From assembly GCA_037445065.1 (NCBI GenBank), contig JBBILD010000002.1:184074-248073 (forward strand): DNA of 64,000 nt. Reading direction: 5' to 3'. The translations under genes were made by a program, and so were the position numbers. The stretch's first letter is position 1, and each line of letters opens with the position of its first letter. Positions 2 through 11,855 of this stretch are shown here, piece after piece. This DNA is from Myxococcales bacterium (lineage in GTDB: Bacteria; Desulfobacterota; Binatia; HRBIN30). Under the pieces are notes generated by a model. It saw nothing but the letters and a program-made list of their open reading frames with translations, was not told where the DNA came from and made no database searches.

Positions 2-2368
2 GCCATCCTGCAGCCACTAGCGTCACCTGACGGCTTGCTGGCGGCATACACGCCCACAAACACTTTGATTTTGATTGACACCGCCGCGCAGACCGATCGC
101 TTGGCCAAGATCCTGAGCCAACTGGATGTGGAAGGACAACAGCAGGAAATCGAAGTTGTGCGGCTGAACTATGCCTTTGCCGGGGATATCGCCGCTTTGT
201 TGCAACAGTTACTGGAGGAGCCGACCGCGCCCGCGACGGGTGCGGCTCCTGCGACCCAACCCGGAGCGGCACCCGACGCGAGGTTGCGCCGTGGCACGGC
301 CCCCCGGACTGGGGGCGCGGCAACGGGTTCCGCAATCAGTGGCGGTGTGACGCCGGAAAGGGCGTTCAAGATCATCCCTGACGAACGGACGAACTCGTTG
401 ATCTTAGTGGCTGGGCCGGCGGAAGCTCGGCGGATCAAGGACCTCATCGCTCGCCTGGACGTGCCCTTGCCATTAGGCACTGGGCGGATTCACGTGTACT
501 ATCTCAAGTACGCCAATGCTTTCGAATTGATTCCTGTTTTGGCCTCTTTGGTGGGGGGAACCGGAGGAGGAATCGGCGGGTTCAGTCCGTTCGGTTTTGG
601 TGGAATCGGTGGGCTCCGGGGAGGTTTTGGAAGTTTCGGGGGGGTGCGCGGTGGCTTCGGAGGGATCGGGGGTCTTGGCCGCTTCGGAGGAAGTAGCTTG
701 GGGTTTGGAGGGTTTGGTGGCGGAGCATTCGGCGGGTTTGGGGGTGGCCTCGGTTTTGGCGGAGTCGCGCCAGGCGTGGGGCTCGGTCTCGGGCAAACCG
801 GGTTTGGCACGGCCGGGGCGTTAGCTGGGCGCCGGCCCGGACTCGCTGGTGCTACTGGTGCTGCTGGGACGGGTGCGGCGGCGGGTCAGCAAACTGAGTT
901 CGAGGGGCAGGTTCGGATTAGTGCCGATCCTGCAACCAATGCGCTGATCATTAACGCTTCCCCTCAAGACTTCGAGACGCTGCGCGAAGTGATCGAGAAG
1001 CTGGATGTCCGGCGTCGGCAGGTGTACGTGGAAGCAATTATTGCCGAGGTGTCGCTTGATCTCACTCGGGAGCTGGGCATCGAGTTACAAGGTGCAACGG
1101 AAATTCCCAACGGCGTGGGTTTTGGCCGCACCAACTTGCGTGGTGACATCAATCAGCTTTTGAACCCCACCAACTTATCTGGCTTAGTGCTAGCGGCGGC
1201 AAGCTCCCAAACCGTCACGGTTAACGGAGTCACCATTCCTGCACAGCAGGCTCTTTTGCGCGCGCTGGAAAGCCGCTCCGACGCAAACATTTTGTCCGCG
1301 CCAACGGTGCTGACAACGGACAATCAGCCAGCGGAAATTGTTTCTGGACAGAACGTGCCCTTCATCGCGAGTCGGGCCACCAGTGACGTGAACTTGAGCA
1401 ACACCTTTGCGACCATCGAGCGGCGGGATGTGGGAATTACGCTGCGCCTCACTCCTCAGATCTCGGAGGGGGGGCAGGTTCGGTTGGACATCTTCCAAGA
1501 AGTCTCCGACGTGATTTCCAACGACCCGCAACTCGGCCCAACGACCACCATCCGGTCCGCCACCACAAGTGTGGTCACGCGAGACGGCCAGACGGTGGTC
1601 ATCGGCGGTATCATGTTCGAAGCACGAGGGAAGAATGTGAGTAAAGTGCCCTTCTTGGGCGACGTCCCAGTGTTGGGGAATCTCTTCCGAACAGACTCCA
1701 CGCGAAACCGCAAAACGAACCTGTTGATCTTTCTGACCCCCCACATCATTCGTAACGAACGCGATCAGCGCAACGTGGCGGTAAACGAGCGGGAGCGCTT
1801 GTTGCGTCGCCCATTCGAAGAGATGGGCCAGCGACCACCCAACTGGGAACAGCTCAATACCCCGTCTTGGGAAGTTCGCCCGTCCATTGACGCTCCGGCT
1901 GAGCCTGAGGGGGAGAGCGAGAAACGGTCGCGTATTGAGATCCACCGCCCAAGTTCTGGAAACGGGGCAGGGGAGAGCACCAGGTCAAGAGCTGAAGAAA
2001 GAGGTTCTGCCAGTTTGAATTCCTCTGCGATTAGCGCGGCCCCACACAACCGTTATGTGTTGCTGGCGACGGTCTCGTCGAGCGGCAGCCCGCCGCAAAG
2101 CCTGGAAGGGAGTAATGGCCTTTTGGCGCTAGCCGTCCCCGCCTCGCTGCCACTTGCGCGTAGCTTCCAGAAGGGCCGCGTGTACCGATTCGTTGGCAAT
2201 GGCTTCACGGCGAGCTACGTGTGTTTGGAGGTCTTTGAGGGTCCCAACGAGGCTTTCGCCGTGTATCCAGAGGGAATGCAAGTCAGCACGAACCCACCTA
2301 GCTTTCTGCATTGGCGTGAGCCAGTGGAGGCTTCTGTGCTCGATGACGCAAATTGGAGTGCCGGGTAG
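2..2368 (+). CDS. gspD: Type II secretion secretin GspD (5'-truncated by window edge)
   Basis: Frame is open from the window start. Secretin N-domain repeats (IEVVRLNYA, IIPDERTNSLIL, ISADPATNALII), LDVRRRQVYVEAIIAEV, and secretin core (KVPFLGDVPVLGNLFR, NLLIFLTPHII). First gene of the gsp cluster. Confidence 0.96.
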   Translation, partial: AILQPLASPDGLLAAYTPTNTLILIDTAAQTDRLAKILSQLDVEGQQQEIEVVRLNYAFAGDIAALLQQLLEEPTAPATGAAPATQPGAAPDARLRRGTAPRTGGAATGSAISGGVTPERAFKIIPDERTNSLILVAGPAEARRIKDLIARLDVPLPLGTGRIHVYYLKYANAFELIPVLASLVGGTGGGIGGFSPFGFGGIGGLRGGFGSFGGVRGGFGGIGGLGRFGGSSLGFGGFGGGAFGGFGGGLGFGGVAPGVGLGLGQTGFGTAGALAGRRPGLAGATGAAGTGAAAGQQTEFEGQVRISADPATNALIINASPQDFETLREVIEKLDVRRRQVYVEAIIAEVSLDLTRELGIELQGATEIPNGVGFGRTNLRGDINQLLNPTNLSGLVLAAASSQTVTVNGVTIPAQQALLRALESRSDANILSAPTVLTTDNQPAEIVSGQNVPFIASRATSDVNLSNTFATIERRDVGITLRLTPQISEGGQVRLDIFQEVSDVISNDPQLGPTTTIRSATTSVVTRDGQTVVIGGIMFEARGKNVSKVPFLGDVPVLGNLFRTDSTRNRKTNLLIFLTPHIIRNERDQRNVAVNERERLLRRPFEEMGQRPPNWEQLNTPSWEVRPSIDAPAEPEGESEKRSRIEIHRPSSGNGAGESTRSRAEERGSASLNSSAISAAPHNRYVLLATVSSSGSPPQSLEGSNGLLALAVPASLPLARSFQKGRVYRFVGNGFTASYVCLEVFEGPNEAFAVYPEGMQVSTNPPSFLHWREPVEASVLDDANWSAG

Positions 2369-2377
2369 GTAACCGGA

Positions 2378-4090
2378 ATGGCGGTCGCAGTCAGCTCTTT
2401 GGAGTCGTTCTTACTCCAATACGGGCACGTCAGCGCGGAAACGCTCGAGAAAGCTAGAGAGCGGCAACGGGACGGGAAAAACCTCGGCGACGTCCTGCTT
2501 GAGATGGGCGCCATTGATGGGGCGACCTGGGCGCGCGTGGTGGCGGACCATTACGGCCTCCCATTCTGCGACCATCTACCCGATGAGACAGCTGTGCTCG
2601 ACTTGATCGAGCAGGTACCGATCAATTTTGCCAAGCGCTACTCGGTGCTGCCGGTGGCTCGCGAAGGGGACACCGTCGTGGTCGCGTGTGCAGACCCGAG
2701 TCAGATCGGCGCTTTGCACGACCTCCGCATTTTACTTGGCTGCCCGTTACGCGTGGTGGTAGCACCGGCGCAGGCAATCATCGATGCGATCAACCGAGCG
2801 TACGACACGATTACGGCTGGATCGGCATCCGAGTTGATGGACGACCTGGATACCGAGCGGCTCGATTTGGAACTCGCTGACCTCGAGGAACCTAGGGACC
2901 TGCTCGATGCGGACGAGGAAGCACCCATCATCCGGCTCGTGAACCAACTGATCTTCCAGGCGGTGAAAGACCGAGCAAGCGACATCCACATCGAGCCGTA
3001 CGAACGGGATTTACACGTGCGCTTTCGAATCGACGGCATTCTTTACGACATCTTGTCGCCCCCGAAGCGTTTTCATCCGGTAATCATCTCGCGTGTGAAA
3101 GTAATGTCGGGGTTGAACATCGCGGAGAAGCGCCTGCCCCAAGATGGAAGAATTCGGATTCGGTTGGCTGGGAAGGACATTGATATTCGGGTCTCGATTG
3201 TACCCACCGCGCATGGGGAACGCGTGGTCATGCGGCTGTTGGACCGCGCCAGCACGTTGTTGCATCTTGAAGATTTGGGCCTCACGGGAGCGAAACTAGA
3301 AACGGTGAACCGACTCATCCGGCAGAGCCACGGCATCATCCTGGTGACAGGCCCGACCGGAAGCGGAAAAACGACGACGCTCTACGCCTGCTTGTCGAAA
3401 ATCAACACGGTCGACAAAAACATCATCACCATCGAGGATCCGGTCGAATACCAGCTAAAAGGGGTTGGCCAGATCCAGGTAAATCCGAAAATTGACTTAA
3501 CGTTCGCCAGTGGGCTCCGTTCGATTCTCCGGCAGGACCCGGACGTGATCATGGTGGGCGAGATCCGCGACGTGGAAACTGCCGAAATTGCGATCCAGGC
3601 AGCGCTGACCGGTCACCTTGTATTCTCCACCCTGCACACGAACGATTCTTTCGGTGCAATGACCCGGCTGCTGGACATGGGAATCGAGCCATTTCTCGTT
3701 TCCTCCTCGGTCATTGCGGTGATGGCGCAGCGGCTCGTGCGGCGCGTGTGCGAGAACTGTCGCGTTGCGTATCGGCCCACCCGCGAAGAGATCGAAGAGA
3801 TTGGCATTACTCCCCAGCAGTTAGGCGGACGAGAACTCTTCCGGCAAGGGCCCGGGTGCAGCCAGTGCAAAGGGAAGGGATATCGTGGGCGGACGGGGAT
3901 TCATGAGTTACTGGTCGTGGACGACGAAATCCGTTCTCTGGTCATGAAAAACGCAGACGCGGCGTCCATTCGCCGCACTGCAACCGCGCACGGCATGAAC
4001 ACGCTCCGCCAAGACGGAGCAGATAAAGTACTAGCCGGAATCACTACAGTGGAGGAAGTGTTGCGCGTGACCCAGGACGATATCGTTTGA
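2378..4090 (+). CDS. gspE: Type II secretion ATPase GspE
   Basis: ASDIHIEP, EKRLPQDGRI, Walker A GPTGSGKTTT, LRQDPDVIMVGEIRD, TGHLVFSTLHTN, Zn motif CENC...CSQC. Confidence 0.97.
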   Translation: MAVAVSSLESFLLQYGHVSAETLEKARERQRDGKNLGDVLLEMGAIDGATWARVVADHYGLPFCDHLPDETAVLDLIEQVPINFAKRYSVLPVAREGDTVVVACADPSQIGALHDLRILLGCPLRVVVAPAQAIIDAINRAYDTITAGSASELMDDLDTERLDLELADLEEPRDLLDADEEAPIIRLVNQLIFQAVKDRASDIHIEPYERDLHVRFRIDGILYDILSPPKRFHPVIISRVKVMSGLNIAEKRLPQDGRIRIRLAGKDIDIRVSIVPTAHGERVVMRLLDRASTLLHLEDLGLTGAKLETVNRLIRQSHGIILVTGPTGSGKTTTLYACLSKINTVDKNIITIEDPVEYQLKGVGQIQVNPKIDLTFASGLRSILRQDPDVIMVGEIRDVETAEIAIQAALTGHLVFSTLHTNDSFGAMTRLLDMGIEPFLVSSSVIAVMAQRLVRRVCENCRVAYRPTREEIEEIGITPQQLGGRELFRQGPGCSQCKGKGYRGRTGIHELLVVDDEIRSLVMKNADAASIRRTATAHGMNTLRQDGADKVLAGITTVEEVLRVTQDDIV

Positions 4091-4165
4091 GCGTTGCGCG
4101 CGGACGATCCCTTGGAGTTACGGCGAGTTTTTCGAGAGAAGTTTCGCAGAGCTGGATGATCGGCC

Positions 4166-5404
4166 ATGCCGGTGTATGCGTATCGCGGGTTTAACGCGGC
4201 GGGTCGGGCGATCGGAGGCATCGTTGATGCGGACACGCCGAAAGGAGCCAGGCAAAAGCTCCGACGCGAGGGGATTTTCCCAACCGAACTGGTCGAGCAA
4301 CAGCGACAAGTACCAAAACGTGCGGCGACCGAGTCAACCACCTGGCAGTCTTTTACCCGTTATTTCGAGCGAATTTCTCCGGAAGAGCTGGCCCTCTTAA
4401 CCCGGCAACTAGCAACCCTGGTGGGTGCCCGGGTTCCTTTGGTAGACTCGCTCTCGGCGCTCATCGAGCAGTCAGAGCACGCTCGCACAAAGCGCATCCT
4501 CTCCCAAGTTCGCGAGCAGGTGACCGAGGGCTCGTCACTTGCGGATGCTCTGAAGGCACACCCGCGGGTGTTCAGCGACTTGTACGTAAACATGGTGCGA
4601 GCCGGCGAGGCGTCGGGTGCCCTCGAGGCGGTCCTTTTGCGACTCGCGGATTACACGGAAAGTTACGCCCAACTCCGTTCGAAAGTGCGCTCGGCACTCA
4701 CGTATCCGACGCTCATGGCAGTAACGGGAGCGGCGATTCTCATGTTTTTGCTAGCCTACGTCGTTCCGAAGATCACGAAGATTTTTGCCGAGAATCAGGC
4801 AACGTTGCCTCTCATGACGCGCATTCTGCTGGCGGTGAGTGGCTTTGCCCAGGAGTACTGGTGGCTGATGGTTTTTGTCCTGCTGACGGCAGGGGTCTCG
4901 GTGCAGATGAGCCGGCGCACGGAGGCCGGGCGCTTGCGATTCGACCGCTACATGTTGGCCATCCCATACCTGGGGACGCTGTTTAAAAAGGTGGCTCTTG
5001 CGCGCTTTGCGCGGACGCTCGCCACGCTTCTGAAGAGCGGTGTCAATTTGCTTACGGCGCTGGACATCGCGAAGAATGTCGTAAACAATTCCCTTCTGAG
5101 TCGGGCGATCGAAGAAGCGCGAGAAAGTATCCGGGAAGGACAAAGTATCGCGCCGCCGCTCAAGAAGAGCGGCCTGTTCCCGCCCATGCTGGTGCACATG
5201 ATCGCGGTCGGGGAAAGAAGCGGGGAGCTCGAAAACATGCTGAGTAAGGCCGCCGAGGCATACGACAACGACGTATCCACTTCGGTTGCGACCATCACGA
5301 GCGTGCTCGAGCCGATGATGATTTTGTTCGGGGGGGCGGTTGTGTTGTTCATTGTGCTCGCCATCCTGTTGCCGATTTTCGAGATGAACCAGTTGGTTCG
5401 TTGA
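4166..5404 (+). CDS. gspF: Type II secretion inner-membrane platform protein GspF
   Basis: TRQLATL, YVNMVRAGEASGALE, ALTYP, MIAVGERSGELENML, EPMMIL, AILLPIF. Confidence 0.96.
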   Translation: MPVYAYRGFNAAGRAIGGIVDADTPKGARQKLRREGIFPTELVEQQRQVPKRAATESTTWQSFTRYFERISPEELALLTRQLATLVGARVPLVDSLSALIEQSEHARTKRILSQVREQVTEGSSLADALKAHPRVFSDLYVNMVRAGEASGALEAVLLRLADYTESYAQLRSKVRSALTYPTLMAVTGAAILMFLLAYVVPKITKIFAENQATLPLMTRILLAVSGFAQEYWWLMVFVLLTAGVSVQMSRRTEAGRLRFDRYMLAIPYLGTLFKKVALARFARTLATLLKSGVNLLTALDIAKNVVNNSLLSRAIEEARESIREGQSIAPPLKKSGLFPPMLVHMIAVGERSGELENMLSKAAEAYDNDVSTSVATITSVLEPMMILFGGAVVLFIVLAILLPIFEMNQLVR

Positions 5405-5499
5405 CCCGTCAGGCGTTGAAGGACCCATGTCGGCTGTTAGCCTAGCGCTCGCAATTCGTCGGTCCGTAAGTAAGGTTTCACAAGGAGGGCGAAAGGGAA

Positions 5500-5913
5500 A
5501 TGCGTCGGCTGTCCGGTTCTGCTGGCTTCACCTTGATCGAAATCATGGTGGTAGTGTTCATTCTGGGCCTGTTGGTCACCCTGGTCGCGCCGAGGATCAT
5601 CGGGCGGACCGACGAGGCACGCCGAACCAAGGCGGCCGCGGATATCAAAGCCATCGAGCAAGCGTTGAACCTCTTTAAGCTGGACAATGGGTTCTATCCA
5701 AGCACCCAGGATGGCCTGCAGGCTCTCGTCCAGCGCCCGGCAAACGCTCGCAACTGGAACCCTGACGGTTACCTGGACCAGATTCCGGTGGATCCGTGGG
5801 GCAACCCCTACGTGTATTTCTCCGACGGCACGCACATCGTGATCAAGTCATACGGGGCAGACGGTCAGGAGGGCGGCGAAGGCAAGAATGCCGACATTGA
5901 CAACCGCGGCTGA
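5500..5913 (+). CDS. gspG: Major pseudopilin GspG
   Basis: Prepilin motif GFTLIEIMVVVFILGLL; LDNGFYPSTQDGLQALV; DPWGNPYVY; SYGADGQEGGEG..ADI. Confidence 0.96.
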   Translation: MRRLSGSAGFTLIEIMVVVFILGLLVTLVAPRIIGRTDEARRTKAAADIKAIEQALNLFKLDNGFYPSTQDGLQALVQRPANARNWNPDGYLDQIPVDPWGNPYVYFSDGTHIVIKSYGADGQEGGEGKNADIDNRG

Positions 5914-6466
5914 CACCCGGGCTGGTTTCCGAGCGGTATGGAAGCGGGCGGACGATCGCGGTTTCACGCTCCTGGAAATCTCGTTGATCCTCTTGCTCCT
6001 GTCGGTGGTACTGGTGGTCGTGGTGCCCCGGTTCCGCGATCGCAGTCGGGTGGAGCTGTTCGCTCACGCCAACCGCTTGCAGTTGACCTACCGGCTGCTG
6101 CGTAACCAGGCCGTCCTCGACGGGGTTGCGTACCGGCTGTACTTCGATTTGGACCAGCAGCGGTACTGGGTGACGCCGGACGAACCCGGCGCCATCGAGC
6201 TGCGGCAGTTCGTTGCAAACCTTGGATCGCTCGCACGGGGGGTGGCGCTGGAAGGGGACGTGCAGCTCTTGGACGTCAGCCTCCCGCTGGACGGAGTCAA
6301 GCTGGCACAGGGCTCCTTGTATGCCATTTTTTACGCCGATGGCTCGGTTGATCCCACCGTGGTTCACCTGGGAACAGCGCAGGAGGCTTACACGTTGTGG
6401 TTCGACCCGCGAGCGCAAAAACTGCGGGGTCGCCTTGGTTACTGGGAGCCGAGTTATGGGCGCTGA
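5888..6466 (+). CDS. gspH: Minor pseudopilin GspH-like
   Basis: GFTLLEISLILLLL prepilin motif, IFYADG, position after gspG. Confidence 0.8.
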   Translation: MPTLTTAADTRAGFRAVWKRADDRGFTLLEISLILLLLSVVLVVVVPRFRDRSRVELFAHANRLQLTYRLLRNQAVLDGVAYRLYFDLDQQRYWVTPDEPGAIELRQFVANLGSLARGVALEGDVQLLDVSLPLDGVKLAQGSLYAIFYADGSVDPTVVHLGTAQEAYTLWFDPRAQKLRGRLGYWEPSYGR

Positions 6467-6851
6467 TGGTGGTTGGCGAGATCGGCCGACCGGCTTCACA
6501 TTACTGGAGGTCCTGGTCGCCCTTGCCGTGGTCGCCATCGCGTTCGTGACCTTACTCGGTTGGCATGCGCGTAACATTCGAACGATCGCGTACAACCAAA
6601 ACCTATCTCGCGCCGTGTTGCTCACCCGCGAGCGCGCTAGCTTGGTCCAGTTCCGGGTTTTGCAAGATGGAATCGAGGGGGCCAGAAACGAGGCGGGGCC
6701 GATCGACGGCTATCCGGGTTTTTACTTTGACCAGGAGGTCTTCCCTACCGGAATCGAAGAGCTACGCCAGGTCGTGGTGCGTGTGTACTGGGACCCGCGC
6801 AATCCGTCTGCATGTGAGGTGATGTTCTTTGTTCGCGACCCGATGTTCTGA
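6456..6851 (+). CDS. gspI: Minor pseudopilin GspI-like
   Basis: GFTLLEVLVALAVVAIA and LRQVVVRVYW. ATG at 6456 chosen within ORF 6213..6851; overlaps the gspH stop. Confidence 0.82.
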   Translation: MGADGGWRDRPTGFTLLEVLVALAVVAIAFVTLLGWHARNIRTIAYNQNLSRAVLLTRERASLVQFRVLQDGIEGARNEAGPIDGYPGFYFDQEVFPTGIEELRQVVVRVYWDPRNPSACEVMFFVRDPMF

Positions 6852-7593
6852 ACGCGCTTGCGCAGGATTCACGTTGCTCGAGCTGTTGCTGGCGATCACG
6901 ATCTTCGCGATTTTCGCCACCGCGATTTATGGCGTGCTTGCGCGTACCTTAGAGGGCAAGGAACGGGCCGAAGCGAAAGCGGAGCTGTTCGCTGCGGGTC
7001 GCGATGCAGTGATGCGAATCGCAGACGATCTAGAGCGTGCCCTTCCGCCTCTGCCGGGTAATCGCAATCAGGTTTGGTTGATTGGGGTCCCAGGGAATGA
7101 CGCTGTTCCTACCGACCAAATCGGCTTTGTCATGGACGTGCGCCGAGAGCGGAGTGCGAGCGGCCGCAGAGGTGGGCGGGTGTTCGTGTCGTACCTGCTG
7201 GAACCGATGCCGGACATACCCCGTGCGTTCGCGCTGTTGCGTCACGAGGAGTTACTGCTGGATCCGCTCGCACAAGCAATGGCTGAGGGTGAAGCGGGAG
7301 CAGAAAACCAAGACACTTCTCTCGTGAACGAGGTCTACCTGGTAGATCGCGTTGCGGGGCTGCGCTTCCGTTATTTGGATCCCGCTTCCGGCGAGTGGGT
7401 GAACGCCTGGGACACCACTGCGGCAGTTCAACCGGGTGAAGCTCCCGTCCCTCTTCCTCCGGTGGTCGAAGTGCAGCTCTTCTTGTTCGACGACACGGGA
7501 GGATATGTGGACTTCAGTACACGGGTCGATCTGCCACTGTACTCGCCACCGCCCACCCCCGCTCCAGGAGGAGTGCGTGCACCGTTGGGGTGA
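6829..7593 (+). CDS. gspJ: Minor pseudopilin GspJ-like
   Basis: GFTLLELLLAITIFA, IADDLERA, LRFRYLD...W.NAWD, LPPVVEVQL. Confidence 0.85.
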   Translation: MFATRCSERACAGFTLLELLLAITIFAIFATAIYGVLARTLEGKERAEAKAELFAAGRDAVMRIADDLERALPPLPGNRNQVWLIGVPGNDAVPTDQIGFVMDVRRERSASGRRGGRVFVSYLLEPMPDIPRAFALLRHEELLLDPLAQAMAEGEAGAENQDTSLVNEVYLVDRVAGLRFRYLDPASGEWVNAWDTTAAVQPGEAPVPLPPVVEVQLFLFDDTGGYVDFSTRVDLPLYSPPPTPAPGGVRAPLG

Positions 7594-8800
7594 GCACAAG
7601 CGTGACAACGAGCGTGGGGCGGCTTTGCTGCTTGCGATCGCGGTGGTGGCTTTACTGACCATCACCGTCTCGGAGTTTTTCTTTTCGGCAGAGGTGGACT
7701 CGCGCATGGCGCGCAATTCCGTGCACAGCCTGCAAGCGTCTCTTCTGGCTCGATCCGGGATTGCCATCGGCGAGGCACTCCTTGCGAAGGATGAGGATCC
7801 AGTAACGGACTCGTTTCTAGAAGAGTGGTGCCCGGCACAAGCGAGAGAGGGCATGGCGTGTCAGATCGAAGACGGTGCCGGGCTGGTGCAGATTCCGGAG
7901 GGAATGCGCCTACGCGTCGAGATTTGGGACGAGAGCGCAAAAATTAACGTGAATCTCACGCGACCCCAAAATCAAAACGAGTGGCGCTTGGGGAATATGG
8001 CCGCGGACCCCCGTTCTGCGCCGCAGCGGTATCAATCATGGCTCTTTGCTCTAGGTAGGGTGCTGCAAGCGCGAGGGATTGGAGAGGATCTCATTCTCGC
8101 GTTAGACCAATACTGGAGCCAACTGTATGAAGTGTACTTTGGGCCCTTGTCTCCCGCGGGTAGCGGCTCTGGAGCCGCTGCGACACCGACCCCACCCTCC
8201 CTCGCCGCTACGCCAGGAGCGACGCCTCCGCCCTTGACCACGCTGTATTTCAGTTCCCTAGACGAGCTTGTAGCGGTAAACGGCTTTCTGCGTAGCTCCG
8301 ATCTACCGCGGATTCGTTCTGTGGTGACGGCAATCGGCTGGCCGTTTCAAGCACAAATTAACGCCAACACCGCTTCCCGCGAGGTCTTGCAGGCCATCAT
8401 TGGGGATAGCGAAGTGGTAGAAACCCTGATTGCAGAGCGGCAAAATCAACCGCTGACAGCAGCCACGGTCGTGACCATGCTGAACAGCAGTGGGACGCTG
8501 CAAGACCCCCAATATCGGAACTCTCGGGTGATGGTTGGCGCGCGCAGCAATGTCTTCTGGATTCGAGCCAGTGCCGTCGTCAACATCGATCCCGTGACTG
8601 GCATGGGTGGCGTGAGCCGAAGTGCAGAAATGGTGGTCCGGCGTGAGCCGAGGCCGGTGCAACAAGGCGCTGGAACGCTTCATCGGTGGAAGCTAACGCG
8701 TCTCTACTGGCAGAAGTCGGGTGGTGCGATTCTGTTTCGCCCCGATCCTGGCGATAGCGGTGAGGCAAGTGGTGAACGGAGCTCAGACGTTCGGTTCTGA
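7577..8800 (+). CDS. gspK: Minor pseudopilin GspK
   Basis: ERGAALLL (no Glu+5, typical of GspK), DESAKINVN, ININTA-like INANTASREVL. GTG at 7577 follows AGGAGG. Confidence 0.88.
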   Translation: MHRWGEHKRDNERGAALLLAIAVVALLTITVSEFFFSAEVDSRMARNSVHSLQASLLARSGIAIGEALLAKDEDPVTDSFLEEWCPAQAREGMACQIEDGAGLVQIPEGMRLRVEIWDESAKINVNLTRPQNQNEWRLGNMAADPRSAPQRYQSWLFALGRVLQARGIGEDLILALDQYWSQLYEVYFGPLSPAGSGSGAAATPTPPSLAATPGATPPPLTTLYFSSLDELVAVNGFLRSSDLPRIRSVVTAIGWPFQAQINANTASREVLQAIIGDSEVVETLIAERQNQPLTAATVVTMLNSSGTLQDPQYRNSRVMVGARSNVFWIRASAVVNIDPVTGMGGVSRSAEMVVRREPRPVQQGAGTLHRWKLTRLYWQKSGGAILFRPDPGDSGEASGERSSDVRF

Positions 8801-8818
8801 AAACACGACGGAAACATT

Positions 8819-10336
8819 ATGCCACAGCGAGTCTTAGCGCTCGACATCGAGCCTACGGCGATCAAAGCCGCGGTGGTCGAGACATCGTTCCGTGAGTTTC
8901 GCATCGCTGGCTTCTACCGAGTGCCTGTTCCGCCTGGGCAGCCTGTTGCGGATGTGCTGCGCAGCTTTGTGGCGAACAATGGGCTCGAAGGGTGCGTGGT
9001 GCTTTCGGCCCTATGTGGGGAGAAGGTCACATGGCGCACCTTGTTTCTGCCGTTCCGGGACCGCAAGCGGCTCGACCAGACCGTTCCGTTTGAACTGGAA
9101 ACCCAGGTACCTTTCGACCTGGATGATGTCGTGATCACGTATCAGCTCTTGCAGCGAGATAAAGCAGGCAGCACGGTTTTGGCTGCCTTGGTGCAGCGCA
9201 AAGACCTGCAAGATCACTTGGACCTGTTACAGGGCGCCGGTCTCGATCCGAAGGTTGTGGACCTCAGTCCCCTCGTTTGCCTAAATGTTCTCGACTTACT
9301 CGCGCCGGAGCCTCCACCCACGTGCGTCTTTCTTTGTGGCGACCCACACGAACTAACCGTGGCACTGCGGCGGGACGGCACCTTGGTTGGCATTCGAACA
9401 ATCACTCCCGCGCTAAAGGTGGAAGAGCCGAGCGCGGAGCAATCCGCTGATAACGGACATGCCGTGGTGGCATCGCAGTGGGCGGAAGAGGTGACTCGAG
9501 AAGTTCGCTGGACATTGCTCGCACTCAATGGGGCGCCGCTCGAGCCAGGAACCCCCTGCGTGGTGGCAGGAGAGGGAATTTACTTTGACTGGTTGGGAAA
9601 CCGGCTTGCGGCGCTCGAGTTGAGCGTGCAGCGCCTCGAGCAAGGGGCGATGCGAATGGTCTCCAGCGAGGTGCTAGGCGCGGTGTCTGCGTTTGTAACG
9701 CCTCTCGGCTTGGCACTCCGTGAAATCCAGCCAGAGCGTGCTTTTGGGGTGAATTTCCGGCAGGGGGAATTCGCGTACCAGCGCGGAAGAGAAGAGGTCC
9801 GTAGCGCGCTCGTGCGAACCGGTACGATCGCCTTCGCGGCGGTCGTGCTGTTGCTGGCGAACGCCTACCTGGAGTACCGGGGGCTACAGGCCCGGCTCGA
9901 CGCGGTCAATGCCCAAGTTCGATTTGTTTTTCGCGAGACGCTGCCTGATGTCCAGCGGATCGTGGATGAGCGCAGGCAACTGCAAGAAGAGATTGATGCG
10001 GTGGAAAAGCGACTCAAGTTGCTCGGCAGTGTTGCTCCACCCAGCGGGGCGACTGCGATCGACGCTTTGCACGCGATCAGTGCGGCGCTCCCCGAGACTT
10101 TGAAGTTAGAAGTGGACGAATACGTGATGGATACACAGGAAATCAAGATTCGCGCGCACACGGATTCGTTAGACACGCCAAACGCCATTCGCGAGGCAAT
10201 TGCTGGCAGTAGGTACTTCGCCGATGTGCAGGTGAAAGACATCAAGTCCGCGCCGGATGGGCGAGTCGATTTCCGCATGATTCTGGTGCTCAATCGCGGC
10301 GGTATCCCAGCGCCGCTTCCCTCAGGTCGGTTATGA
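8819..10336 (+). CDS. gspL: GspL (PilM/PilN-like) assembly platform protein
   Basis: N-terminal actin-like LALDI domain, VPFELETQVPF, VNFRQGEF, single TM and periplasmic coiled coil; gene order. Confidence 0.85.
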   Translation: MPQRVLALDIEPTAIKAAVVETSFREFRIAGFYRVPVPPGQPVADVLRSFVANNGLEGCVVLSALCGEKVTWRTLFLPFRDRKRLDQTVPFELETQVPFDLDDVVITYQLLQRDKAGSTVLAALVQRKDLQDHLDLLQGAGLDPKVVDLSPLVCLNVLDLLAPEPPPTCVFLCGDPHELTVALRRDGTLVGIRTITPALKVEEPSAEQSADNGHAVVASQWAEEVTREVRWTLLALNGAPLEPGTPCVVAGEGIYFDWLGNRLAALELSVQRLEQGAMRMVSSEVLGAVSAFVTPLGLALREIQPERAFGVNFRQGEFAYQRGREEVRSALVRTGTIAFAAVVLLLANAYLEYRGLQARLDAVNAQVRFVFRETLPDVQRIVDERRQLQEEIDAVEKRLKLLGSVAPPSGATAIDALHAISAALPETLKLEVDEYVMDTQEIKIRAHTDSLDTPNAIREAIAGSRYFADVQVKDIKSAPDGRVDFRMILVLNRGGIPAPLPSGRL

Positions 10337-10932
10337 GATTCGACTGGAATCTTCTCGCCCGGTACATTGATCGTCTTGCACCGCGGGAAAAGCTGCTGCT
10401 GCTCGTCGCAGCCGCGGTCACCGTCCTTATCCTCGGCTACTCGTTTGTTTGGGACCCGTTGCAGGCTGGCGCCGCACAATTGTCCCGAAGGATCAGTTTG
10501 CGGGAGCGAGAATTGGAGGAAATCCTGCGCCAGCGGGAACAATACCTCGAACTGCTCCGCCAGTTGGAAGCGTACGGCGACATTTCCGAGATGGACCCGA
10601 ATTTCAATTTGTTGGGTTACTTGCAGGGCGTTGTGACTGCAGCCGTGAGTCGCGAGAAAATCACGTCTCTGAACCCGACCACGCGGCCAAAGGCAGAGGC
10701 TCCTGAATTCGTCGAGGAAATGGTCGAGATCAAACTAGCGGGGGTATCGCTCCCACAGATTGTGGATCTGTTGCATCGGGTGGAGAAAGGAGAGCACCCG
10801 CTGCATTTTAGCCGGGTGTCCATTAAGAAGCGCGTTAACGATCCGTACTCCTTTGACGTGCAGGCTACCGTGGCGGTGCTCAAGCACGCCGAAAAGCCCG
10901 CGGAAAAAGCCGTGTCGCGAGGAGAGAGCTGA
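10333..10932 (+). CDS. gspM: GspM-like assembly platform protein
   Basis: LAPREK followed by a TM helix, coiled coil and ferredoxin-like C-terminus; 4-nt overlap with gspL. Confidence 0.8.
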   Translation: MRFDWNLLARYIDRLAPREKLLLLVAAAVTVLILGYSFVWDPLQAGAAQLSRRISLRERELEEILRQREQYLELLRQLEAYGDISEMDPNFNLLGYLQGVVTAAVSREKITSLNPTTRPKAEAPEFVEEMVEIKLAGVSLPQIVDLLHRVEKGEHPLHFSRVSIKKRVNDPYSFDVQATVAVLKHAEKPAEKAVSRGES

Positions 10933-11855
10933 TGCGGGCTCCACAGTTGCGGCTGCCTTGGGCAACGTGGTTTTCTTCACGCTGGGTCCCTGATTTCTTG
11001 CTGCGGCGCAGCACGTGGTTGTACCTGTCGTACACGTTTGCAGTGTTTCTAATCGCGCTGGTCGTCACCTTCCCGCACGACTTGTTGATCCAGCGGGCGG
11101 TCCGGCACTTGGACCGCGGGCCGTTGGCGTTGCACGTCAATGGAGCCGGCGTTTCGCTCTTGCGCGGATACTGCGTTAGCGGCGTGCGGTTGGGAAACAG
11201 TGACGGCAACCGCCCGCCGCTACTCGAGATCTCGACGGTGTGGGCCCGCCCGAGCATTCGCGAATGGTTGCGGGGGAATTTTTATGCGGCGGCAGTAGGC
11301 GCTGAACTCTACGGAGGAGCCCTCCAAGGAAGCGTCCTGTACCAAGACGTCGGCTTGTCAGGTGCAGTCGAGTGGCACGGACTTCAGCTCGGACGTTACC
11401 GGACACTGCAGAGCCAGCTGGAAGAAGGTCAGATTACGGGCGTGGTTTCCGGTGACTTGGCCTTCGAAATCCGCGGGCAGAATTTCCAACAGGGGCAAGC
11501 CAACGGTGAAATCGTGATCGAGTCCGCTGCCTTACAAGACGTGAAGTTGGGCGGCTGGCCCATTCCGAACGTGCAACTGAAGCAGATCAAGGCCAAGATC
11601 AAGGTCGTTCCTGGACGGATCGAACTTGCCGACTTGGTGGCGACCGGCGACCTAAGCGTTCAGGGTGGGGGCCAGATCACGGTGCGCGAACCGTTTGGTG
11701 AAAGCGCGCTCAATCTTCGTCTGACAATTGCCCCGACACCCCAAACCCCAGATACCCTAAAAGCTGCGCTGGCGCTACTACCGCGCCCAGCGGGAGGGAA
11801 GCCGGACAGTCCGATCACGATCGCCGGTACGTTGCTCAAGCCGAAGCTGCGCTAA
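10932..11855 (+). CDS. gspN: GspN-like protein
   Basis: N-terminal TM ending in TFP, beta-rich body, C-terminal ITIAGTLLKPKLR; last gene of the gsp operon. Confidence 0.75.
   Translation: MRAPQLRLPWATWFSSRWVPDFLLRRSTWLYLSYTFAVFLIALVVTFPHDLLIQRAVRHLDRGPLALHVNGAGVSLLRGYCVSGVRLGNSDGNRPPLLEISTVWARPSIREWLRGNFYAAAVGAELYGGALQGSVLYQDVGLSGAVEWHGLQLGRYRTLQSQLEEGQITGVVSGDLAFEIRGQNFQQGQANGEIVIESAALQDVKLGGWPIPNVQLKQIKAKIKVVPGRIELADLVATGDLSVQGGGQITVREPFGESALNLRLTIAPTPQTPDTLKAALALLPRPAGGKPDSPITIAGTLLKPKLR

Follow-up and report, generated by a model that had tools for sequence, protein, structure and literature searches.

What would a secretin gain from a long, disordered loop of glycine and phenylalanine in the last of its N domains? 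The question is raised by gspD, the secretin gene of a type II secretion system (T2SS), found at the start of a 64,000-nucleotide stretch of DNA from a Myxococcales bacterium assembly (G000:C2:184074-248073, contig JBBILD010000002.1), hereafter the window. The window start cuts gspD; the whole open reading frame (ORF) encodes 948 amino acids (aa; P0001) and begins at L001:1022, 479 nt upstream of the window. The loop appears to be an expanded, compositionally specialised form of the variable insertion already known from the N3 domain of secretins, and its novelty lies in that form. Its length and bulk composition are held across a bacterial class, suggesting a role that may be that of a cohesive plug beneath the secretin gate. 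The parts of the gene on which the argument turns are as follows.

2..2368, + strand: gspD, T2SS secretin; the 3' 788 codons and the stop lie in the window (ORF, Pfam and PDB matches)
485..553, + strand: first strand and first helix of N3 (...IHVYYLKYANAFELIPVLASLV), residues 322-344 (AlphaFold strand 322-327, helix 333-344)
554..910, + strand: Gly/Phe-rich N3 insertion, 119 aa, residues 345-463 (composition, model confidence, conservation)
578..808, + strand: core dense in Phe-Gly (FG) dipeptides, residues 353-429; 77 aa with 12 FG, 13 Phe and 52% Gly
911..1003, + strand: second and third strands and second helix of N3 (VRISADPATNALII...), residues 464-494 (AlphaFold strands 465-469 and 474-479, helix 481-494)
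1019..1750, + strand: secretin beta-barrel domain, residues 500-743 (PF00263 at 1.4e-49, AlphaFold strands)

Judged by its domain content and by a complete gsp operon context, both of which fit, P0001 is a T2SS secretin GspD, as a first reading of the sequence without database searches (the sequence-only reading) had proposed. Pfam finds Secretin (PF00263, 1.4e-49) and three stretches of Secretin_N (PF03958, 6.2e-37), and the domain set of its homologues is PF21305+PF03958+PF00263. The closest solved relatives are the T2SS secretins GspD, XcpQ and PulD (E down to 1.8e-81), each deposited with 15 chains. An AlphaFold2 model built from a 148-sequence alignment gives the domain order N0, N1, N2, N3, barrel. 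The homologues carry the source labels Candidatus Binatia, 'bacterium HR30' and older 'Deltaproteobacteria' labels of metagenome-assembled genomes (MAGs).

The insertion is bounded by ...ELIPVLASLV before and VRISADPATNALII after. Its 119 residues comprise 55 Gly (46%), 14 Phe (12%), 12 Ala, 8 Leu, 5 Arg, 3 Val, 3 Ile and 2 Glu; the rest of GspD has 7.4% Gly and 2.9% Phe. Both Glu fall within the last seven residues, and the loop is devoid of Asp, Lys, Tyr, Trp, His and Cys. It contains 12 FG and nine GF dipeptides, eight GFG tripeptides and RGGFG twice, amounting to one FG per 9.9 residues over the whole loop and about one per 6.4 in the core. The sequence-only reading had described about 110 low-complexity residues with 12 FG, a few Arg and no acidic residues; the 112 residues encoded by 554-889 include 12 FG and 5 Arg but neither Asp nor Glu, and the example string and both flanking motifs that it quoted are present.

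The number of FG dipeptides in this loop exceeds the expectation from its own composition, because 20,000 shuffles of its residues yield 6.45 ± 1.76 FG and reach 12 or more in only 0.18% of cases. The same comparison with shuffles was made in three sets of relatives, within each of which the sequences are related and the trials are not independent. Across the Binatia set, Phe is followed by Gly in 808 of 1,038 instances (516 ± 16 expected) and preceded by Gly in 677 (518 ± 15). A second lineage, that of P0143, has 263 FG out of 328 against 123 ± 9 expected, with GF at expectation (120 against 122 ± 10); labels available for three of its rows read 'Oligoflexia', 'Deltaproteobacteria' and 'Pseudomonadota' MAGs. 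Among 38 representatives with loops of at least 60 aa, the figures are 62 of 99 for FG (34 ± 5 expected) and 35 for GF (34 ± 5). FG thus exceeds composition, and the bias is directional, Phe then Gly, with the same asymmetry in all three sets.

Three local origins for such a sequence were considered and rejected. Recent slippage of a DNA repeat is one: Tandem Repeats Finder detects a single array, 2.4 copies of 9 bp at 846-867, which lies beyond the FG core. A general tendency of the genome toward Gly/aromatic low complexity is another. In a six-frame scan of the genome for stop-to-stop ORFs of at least 100 aa, with thresholds of at least 35% Gly and at least 8% aromatic residues over 60 aa, three of 20,059 ORFs pass; GspD alone resembles real coding sequence, and the other two look like off-frame Arg/Gly sequence. 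The third is a loop common to all secretins of the genome; against it, the N3 loop of the PilQ-like secretin on contig 31 is an ordinary one. This second secretin (L003, G000:C31:17932-21441; 677-693 aa, Secretin domain at 2.0e-45) carries a Gly/Ala/Thr-rich stretch inside its barrel region.

In the AlphaFold model the insertion follows helix 333-344 and precedes strand 465-469 in N3, the last N domain. Residues 347-457 have a predicted local distance difference test score (pLDDT) below 50 and no secondary structure in the AlphaFold2 model, and the loop is predicted to be intrinsically disordered. HMMER alignments to the solved structures 5wq7 and 5wln break at the same site, where the Escherichia coli K-12 and Pseudomonas aeruginosa proteins have about 20 residues; the start of N3 aligns with E. 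coli K-12 GspD (5wq7) up to about residue 264, and the alignment resumes at about residue 287. On this modelling evidence the insertion corresponds to the known variable insertion of secretin N3, between the first helix and the second strand. Its placement in N3 and its disorder, both anticipated by the sequence-only reading, are borne out.

Work on other secretins establishes this site as known, variable, disordered and associated with the lumen. In InvG, Hu et al. describe an insertion at residues 217-267, of which 228-251 are disordered or unmodelled, and hold it responsible for the closed channel's periplasmic constriction; in the open, needle-bound state the insertion leaves the lumen by passing between N3 and N1, and it stabilises the ring interfaces. 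PulD residues 288-303 are unmodelled, and N3 constriction sites within the channel are mentioned (Chernyatina and Low 2019, PMC6882859). The pIV channel has a 74-Å opening at N3 with disordered loops directed toward the pore centre (Conners et al. 2021, PMC8563730), and the Deinococcus radiodurans secretin DR_0774 has a 59-aa gap in N3 with no resolved structure and a constriction of about 67 Å (PMC10828601). A figure legend in a review (PMC9251779), citing Yan et al. 2017, states that 'N3 constriction sites' open on cargo passage. The PulD, pIV and InvG papers support the earlier premise of a disordered N3 loop at the periplasmic constriction.

Like the insertions of InvG, PulD and DR_0774, which are disordered or unmodelled, the GspD loop is predicted to be disordered and would be tied to the periplasmic constriction below the gate. 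At 119 aa it is two to seven times as long as they are (16-59 aa), and its composition is extreme, at 46% Gly, 12% Phe and 12 FG; both length and composition are held class-wide. Full-text searches of openly accessible papers, main text only, found no description of Gly/Phe-rich or FG-like secretin loops; in a paper on Myxococcus and cyanobacterial GspD, glycine appears as a buffer only. A homology search with the loop alone returned eight matches, all of them family-level GspD, and no other protein family. The ESM Atlas gave a best score of 0.84 with the loop, under the lead threshold of 0.9; Secretin_N fragments make up two of its top three clusters, which is to be read as a lead only.

Within the family, the loop is under purifying selection. 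Its identity to three family-level genomes is 75-78%, compared with 48 ± 5% for shuffled loops, and Phe aligns to Phe at 79-86% of positions against 40-46% by chance. The nonsynonymous substitution rate (dN) is 0.14-0.17 in the loop and 0.03 in the folded domains, and synonymous sites are saturated: already within the family, the rate of synonymous change (dS) is either saturated or undefined, which rules out a dN/dS ratio. Change in the loop is thus about five times as fast as in the folded parts and still far slower than in neutral sequence. At the order and class levels, loop identity is 0.44-0.57 against a chance level of 0.42-0.49, and length and composition alone persist. The expectation that Phe spacing would be conserved among orthologues therefore holds within the family, where Phe positions are retained, and fails beyond it, where alignment is near chance.

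The bulk properties are far steadier. A clade set of 120 listed homologues plus the query (121 sequences, Candidatus Binatia, including the 99% identical P0002 from the window's own cluster) has the loop in every member, at 93-142 aa with a median of 116. Gly makes up 37-65% of these loops (median 50%), the net charge runs from +2 to +9 with none at or below zero, and together they contain only two His and one Cys, with Asp plus Glu at 2.2% and Val plus Ile at 4.4% of residues. Phe ranges from 1 to 18 per loop (median 8). Tyr, of which some relatives carry 5-9, takes its place in several lineages, for example as GGYGGGG repeats in P0015, P0020, P0043 and P0052, and Leu does so in P0084 and P0098.

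Sampling at the level of the GTDB class widens the range of substitution. Matches at E ≤ 1e-60 occur in 89 of 121 genomes (a tally that includes G233), and in 28 of the 29 class loci examined the loop is intact, at 85-126 aa with 22-53% Gly and 1-16 Phe. Two of these, L056 and L059, have Gly/Met loops with 17 Met each. All 149 intact loops (121 from the clade and 28 from the class) measure 85-142 aa while the folded domains fall to 45-50% identity. Across them the coefficient of variation is 0.44 for the Phe fraction and 0.15 for the total hydrophobic fraction, and Phe and other hydrophobic residues are inversely related (Spearman -0.67, a descriptive value for 149 related loops). What these sequences conserve is not Phe itself but loop length, the share of Gly, a net charge that is not negative and the overall amount of hydrophobic residues. 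The sequence-only reading would have been undermined by orthologues with equally long loops and no Phe enrichment. Equally long loops with as few as one Phe, and with Tyr, Met or Leu substituting, do occur, which undermines that reading in part; the FG bias in three sets stands.

Two side observations belong to this class sample. The order-level gspD orthologue L060 (G262:C8:243300-248093), the one locus of the 29 whose loop is not intact, gives two overlapping matches, to query residues 38-355 and 332-946, with the loop region in another frame; either its Gly-rich loop contains a frameshift or the assembly is in error there. In L051, L053 and L055-L059, a conserved GGGGP.TLSP.TGR.SLGRGS stands at the start of the loop, ahead of Gly/Met/Phe repeats, and may be a short ordered or docking element of that sub-lineage.

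At the phylum level, matches are found in 113 of 151 genomes, mostly in ORFs of 600-800 aa. A representative set was drawn from the best 150 at 50% identity, of which three longer than 1,300 aa were excluded and 146 have a loop at this site. Loop length here is 12-114 aa: 97 loops have at most 45 aa, 21 have 46-69 and 28 have at least 70. Of those 28, Gly reaches at least 30% in 14, and 13 have at least three FG or YG. A FastTree phylogeny of the barrel and the C-terminal part of N3, with loop columns excluded (143 rows, five fragments dropped), recovers with support 98 a set of 36 rows holding 12 of the 13 loops that are both long and Gly-rich, 11 of the 14 other long loops, 10 of the 20 of middle length and 3 of the 96 short ones. 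As most long loops fall in this set, loop expansion characterises one subfamily of GspD on the tree, apart from a few cases scattered elsewhere. The three excluded proteins, P0204 (5,532 aa), P0212 (5,131 aa) and P0268 (1,666 aa), were kept out of the loop statistics; these giant predictions have 9-45 GspD-matching stretches and a C-terminal secretin domain, and could be either fused gene calls or secretins whose N domain is repeated very many times.

A physical estimate indicates how much material such loops would bring to one channel. Solved T2SS secretins have 15 chains, and with 12 FG in each the channel would hold 180, in line with the sequence-only reading, which had put secretins at 12-15 subunits and the channel at well over 100 FG. 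Fifteen loops amount to an estimated 1,785 residues, 156 kDa and 210 Phe. Their dry volume, estimated at 189,000 Å3, is 1.4 times that of an N3 lumen of 70 x 35 Å; spread over 110-150 Å of a 75-Å channel, they would reach an estimated 390-530 mg/ml and 450-615 mM FG. By denatured-chain scaling the radius of gyration of one loop is about 34 Å, near the lumen radius, so a single loop could reach the channel axis. On these estimates, the N3 ring by itself could not accommodate 15 loops, which would overlap strongly.

Tentatively, and at slightly less than an even chance, we lean toward the explanation that in this clade the variable N3 loop has come to serve as a plug or gasket, cohesive and deformable, that fills the vestibule beneath the gate. 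The loops of a 15-mer would project into the channel just below the gate, where hydrophobic and aromatic contacts, through Phe here and through Tyr, Met or Leu in relatives, with Arg as a helper, would stick them into a dense, deformable mass filling the vestibule at rest. When the gate opens, the plug would mould around the pseudopilus tip and folded cargo and be pushed aside, possibly threading out between the N-domain rings as the InvG loop does. As a soft gasket it would curb leakage through what is a very wide pore, and any cargo selectivity would be a by-product.

Several points weigh against a plug. The lumenal placement of the Gly/Phe loop is suggested by analogy and is not guaranteed, because the equivalent insertion of needle-bound InvG lies outside the lumen, between N3 and N1. 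Cohesion between loops is a suggestion from composition alone. The subunit number in the physical estimate is borrowed from solved homologues, and the chain dimension from a denatured-chain scaling formula. A 156-kDa plug would have to move in every secretion cycle, by a route that is still hypothetical. Beyond the family, loop sequence is barely above chance alignment and bulk properties alone are constrained, which other roles would need as well, and some class loops have little Gly or Phe (22% Gly in L050, one Phe in L047).

A structural or assembly role we regard as unlikely. Under this alternative, the loops would lie between the N-domain rings or outside them, gluing the 15 subunits together, bracing N3 to N2, or contacting peptidoglycan or GspC; a cohesive sequence could also aid oligomerisation where, as in this lineage, no pilotin-binding S domain is recognisable and a different C-terminal domain stands in its place. 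The stabilising path of the open InvG insertion between N3 and N1 offers a precedent, the estimate that 15 loops exceed the capacity of the N3 lumen points the same way, and a second disordered insert occupies the equivalent site in N2. The InvG pieces that stabilise interfaces are, however, short and ordered, whereas GspD has 110 featureless residues, for which AlphaFold predicts no ordered segment despite 148 sequences. Loss of position-specific conservation beyond the family would also be unusual for a docking segment.

The sequence-only reading had gone further than a plug, proposing a convergent filter like that of the nuclear pore. In such a selective sieve, inert periplasmic proteins would be excluded while cargo and the pseudopilus tip dissolve into the loops via FG-binding surfaces; this, too, we think improbable. 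Its fullest form, an independently evolved, tethered FG-type cohesive phase acting as a second permeability barrier, with about 180 FG per pore at roughly half-molar concentration, tuned through Tyr, Met and Leu in relatives and with the surfaces of cargo and pseudopilus adapted to it, is equally doubtful.

Comparison with Nup98-type FG domains shows both why the analogy is attractive and where it breaks down. The relevant background comes from one study (PMC9918544), which reports Nup98-type FG phases at about 470 mg/ml and 380 mM FG, a span of 210-550 mM across FG phases, and hypercohesive phases of 600 mg/ml and 550 mM when spacers are shorter. The study also reports that phase separation survives motif changes provided hydrophobicity is preserved and is counteracted by negative charge, that selectivity is possible in a YG phase, and that conversion of GLFG to GLLG abolishes Nup98 phase separation unless hydrophobicity is restored elsewhere. 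Nup98 carries one FG per 12 residues in an FG domain of about 500-700 residues.

Like cohesive Nup98/GLFG-type domains, the GspD loop is low in complexity, depleted in acidic residues and predicted to be disordered; its FG appear regularly spaced, with a Phe-then-Gly bias, and are estimated to be as concentrated or more so, and both would be tethered round the wall of a wide channel for folded proteins, an assumption in the case of GspD. The Phe-then-Gly excess, with GF at expectation in two of the three sets, favours a sieve, as do an FG density above that of Nup98, an estimated concentration in the range reported for FG phases and a net charge that is positive in 121 of 121 loops. Nup98 FG domains are strongly selected against charge, acidic residues above all, and the GspD loop has no Asp or Glu in its first 112 residues alongside its 5 Arg; they are also selected against Tyr, His, Cys, Trp, Val and Ile, of which the loop lacks the first four but has 3 Val and 3 Ile. 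The selectivity reported for a YG phase would fit the relatives that use Tyr. Across the 121 clade loops, the median is 15.6 residues per aromatic-Gly motif, with a range of 7.7-59.5.

The differences are as substantial. Each chain has 119 aa rather than 500-700, there is no homology and no anchor to a nuclear pore complex, and the spacers are almost pure Gly where those of Nup98 are rich in Ser, Thr, Asn and Gln. GLFG is absent from the GspD loop and occurs twice in the 121 clade loops, the common form being GFG (595). Phe is exchangeable for Tyr, Met and Leu in relatives, and it falls to 1-4 in many orthologues with Met or Leu instead, which sits poorly with the effect of GLFG-to-GLLG changes. 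Going by the Nup98 work, spacers as short as these would make the phase hypercohesive and closed even to transport receptors. The analysis turned up no candidate FG-binding partner, and the six-frame genome scan holds no other Gly/aromatic-rich protein. Transport is driven by the pseudopilus in the T2SS and by receptors in the nuclear pore; because T2SS transport is piston-driven, a selective solvent is unneeded. On chain length, GLFG prevalence and lack of homology, the loop is not, by its sequence, a member of the FG-nucleoporin family.

Gly-rich low-complexity domains are also found well beyond nucleoporins. RGG/GAR boxes, the 'glycine loops' of keratin and loricrin and plant glycine-rich proteins all have runs of Gly broken by Phe, Tyr or Arg. 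These proteins are cytoplasmic, nuclear or associated with the cell wall and have RNA-binding or structural roles, whereas the GspD loop is periplasmic and would lie in a channel; the search with the loop alone brought up no sequence relation to them.

Least probable is a tolerated low-complexity expansion with no specific function, its composition drifting in a G+C-rich lineage: the site varies in all secretins (12-114 aa among the 146 representatives), composition moves between Phe, Tyr, Met, Leu and Ser and alignment beyond the family is near chance, but drift leaves unexplained a length of 85-142 aa in all 149 loops across diverging folded domains, the lack of a DNA repeat under the FG part, a loop dN far below saturated dS within the family, a charge that is never negative in 121 loops, a steady hydrophobic content and the directional FG bias.

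The possible plug bears on a wider question. Secretins open a pore of about 70 Å in the outer membrane, which raises the question of how leakage is avoided while folded proteins pass and what part is played by the disordered N3 loop, invisible in every structure. A class that keeps this loop at about 115 residues of Gly and hydrophobics has enough material to fill the channel, and because such a class-wide loop could do so, its function is directly testable. If the loops do form a cohesive seal, they would be a simple prokaryotic counterpart of the FG barrier of the nuclear pore, and 15 short chains tethered in a defined ring would offer a minimal system for confined FG-like phases. An FG-type phase, if real, could let the huge gate open for folded cargo without leaking the periplasm. 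Should the loops not be a seal, their strong conservation would still indicate that, in non-model phyla, secretin assembly or gating has a requirement so far unrecognised.

Two further parts of the protein depart from a plain secretin, and the gene stands at the head of the window's T2SS genes, with gspC just upstream.

224..325, + strand: disordered N2 insertion rich in Ala, Pro, Thr and Gly, residues 235-268, pLDDT below 50
2039..2365, + strand: folded C-terminal domain of about 110 aa, residues 840-948, high pLDDT
2378..11855, + strand: rest of the T2SS operon (Pfam T2SSE, T2SSF, T2SSG, N_methyl, T2SSJ, T2SSK, T2SSL, T2SSM, T2SSN)
2378-4090, + strand: gspE (Pfam T2SSE)
4166-5404, + strand: gspF (Pfam T2SSF)
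5500-5913, + strand: gspG (Pfam T2SSG)
within 2378..11855, + strand: minor pseudopilins and gspK/L/M/N-like genes (Pfam)
L001:81-1013, outside the window, just upstream of gspD: gspC (Pfam T2SSC+PDZ)

The C-terminal domain stands where Klebsiella-type secretins have the pilotin-binding S domain. It follows a disordered linker (residues 797-839, pLDDT below 50) and is beta-rich, with pLDDT of 92-98 in the full model; modelled alone, it reaches 94.1 with a predicted template modelling score of 0.85. It has no Pfam match and no Foldseek match in the PDB at E ≤ 0.001. Assignment to a fold was rejected, since the best VIA-align Z score of 4.3, among inteins and OB-like folds, is indistinguishable from chance. 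Trp, Tyr-Pro-Glu-Gly and Leu/Gly positions in the domain are invariant, and a C-terminal segment of at least 90 aa aligns in 17 of the 29 class loci (L005, L034-L047, L060, L061), being short or absent in 12.

The N2 insert occupies a helix-to-strand site equivalent to that of the N3 loop, and the clade consensus retains a PGAAPDAR.RRG motif within it.

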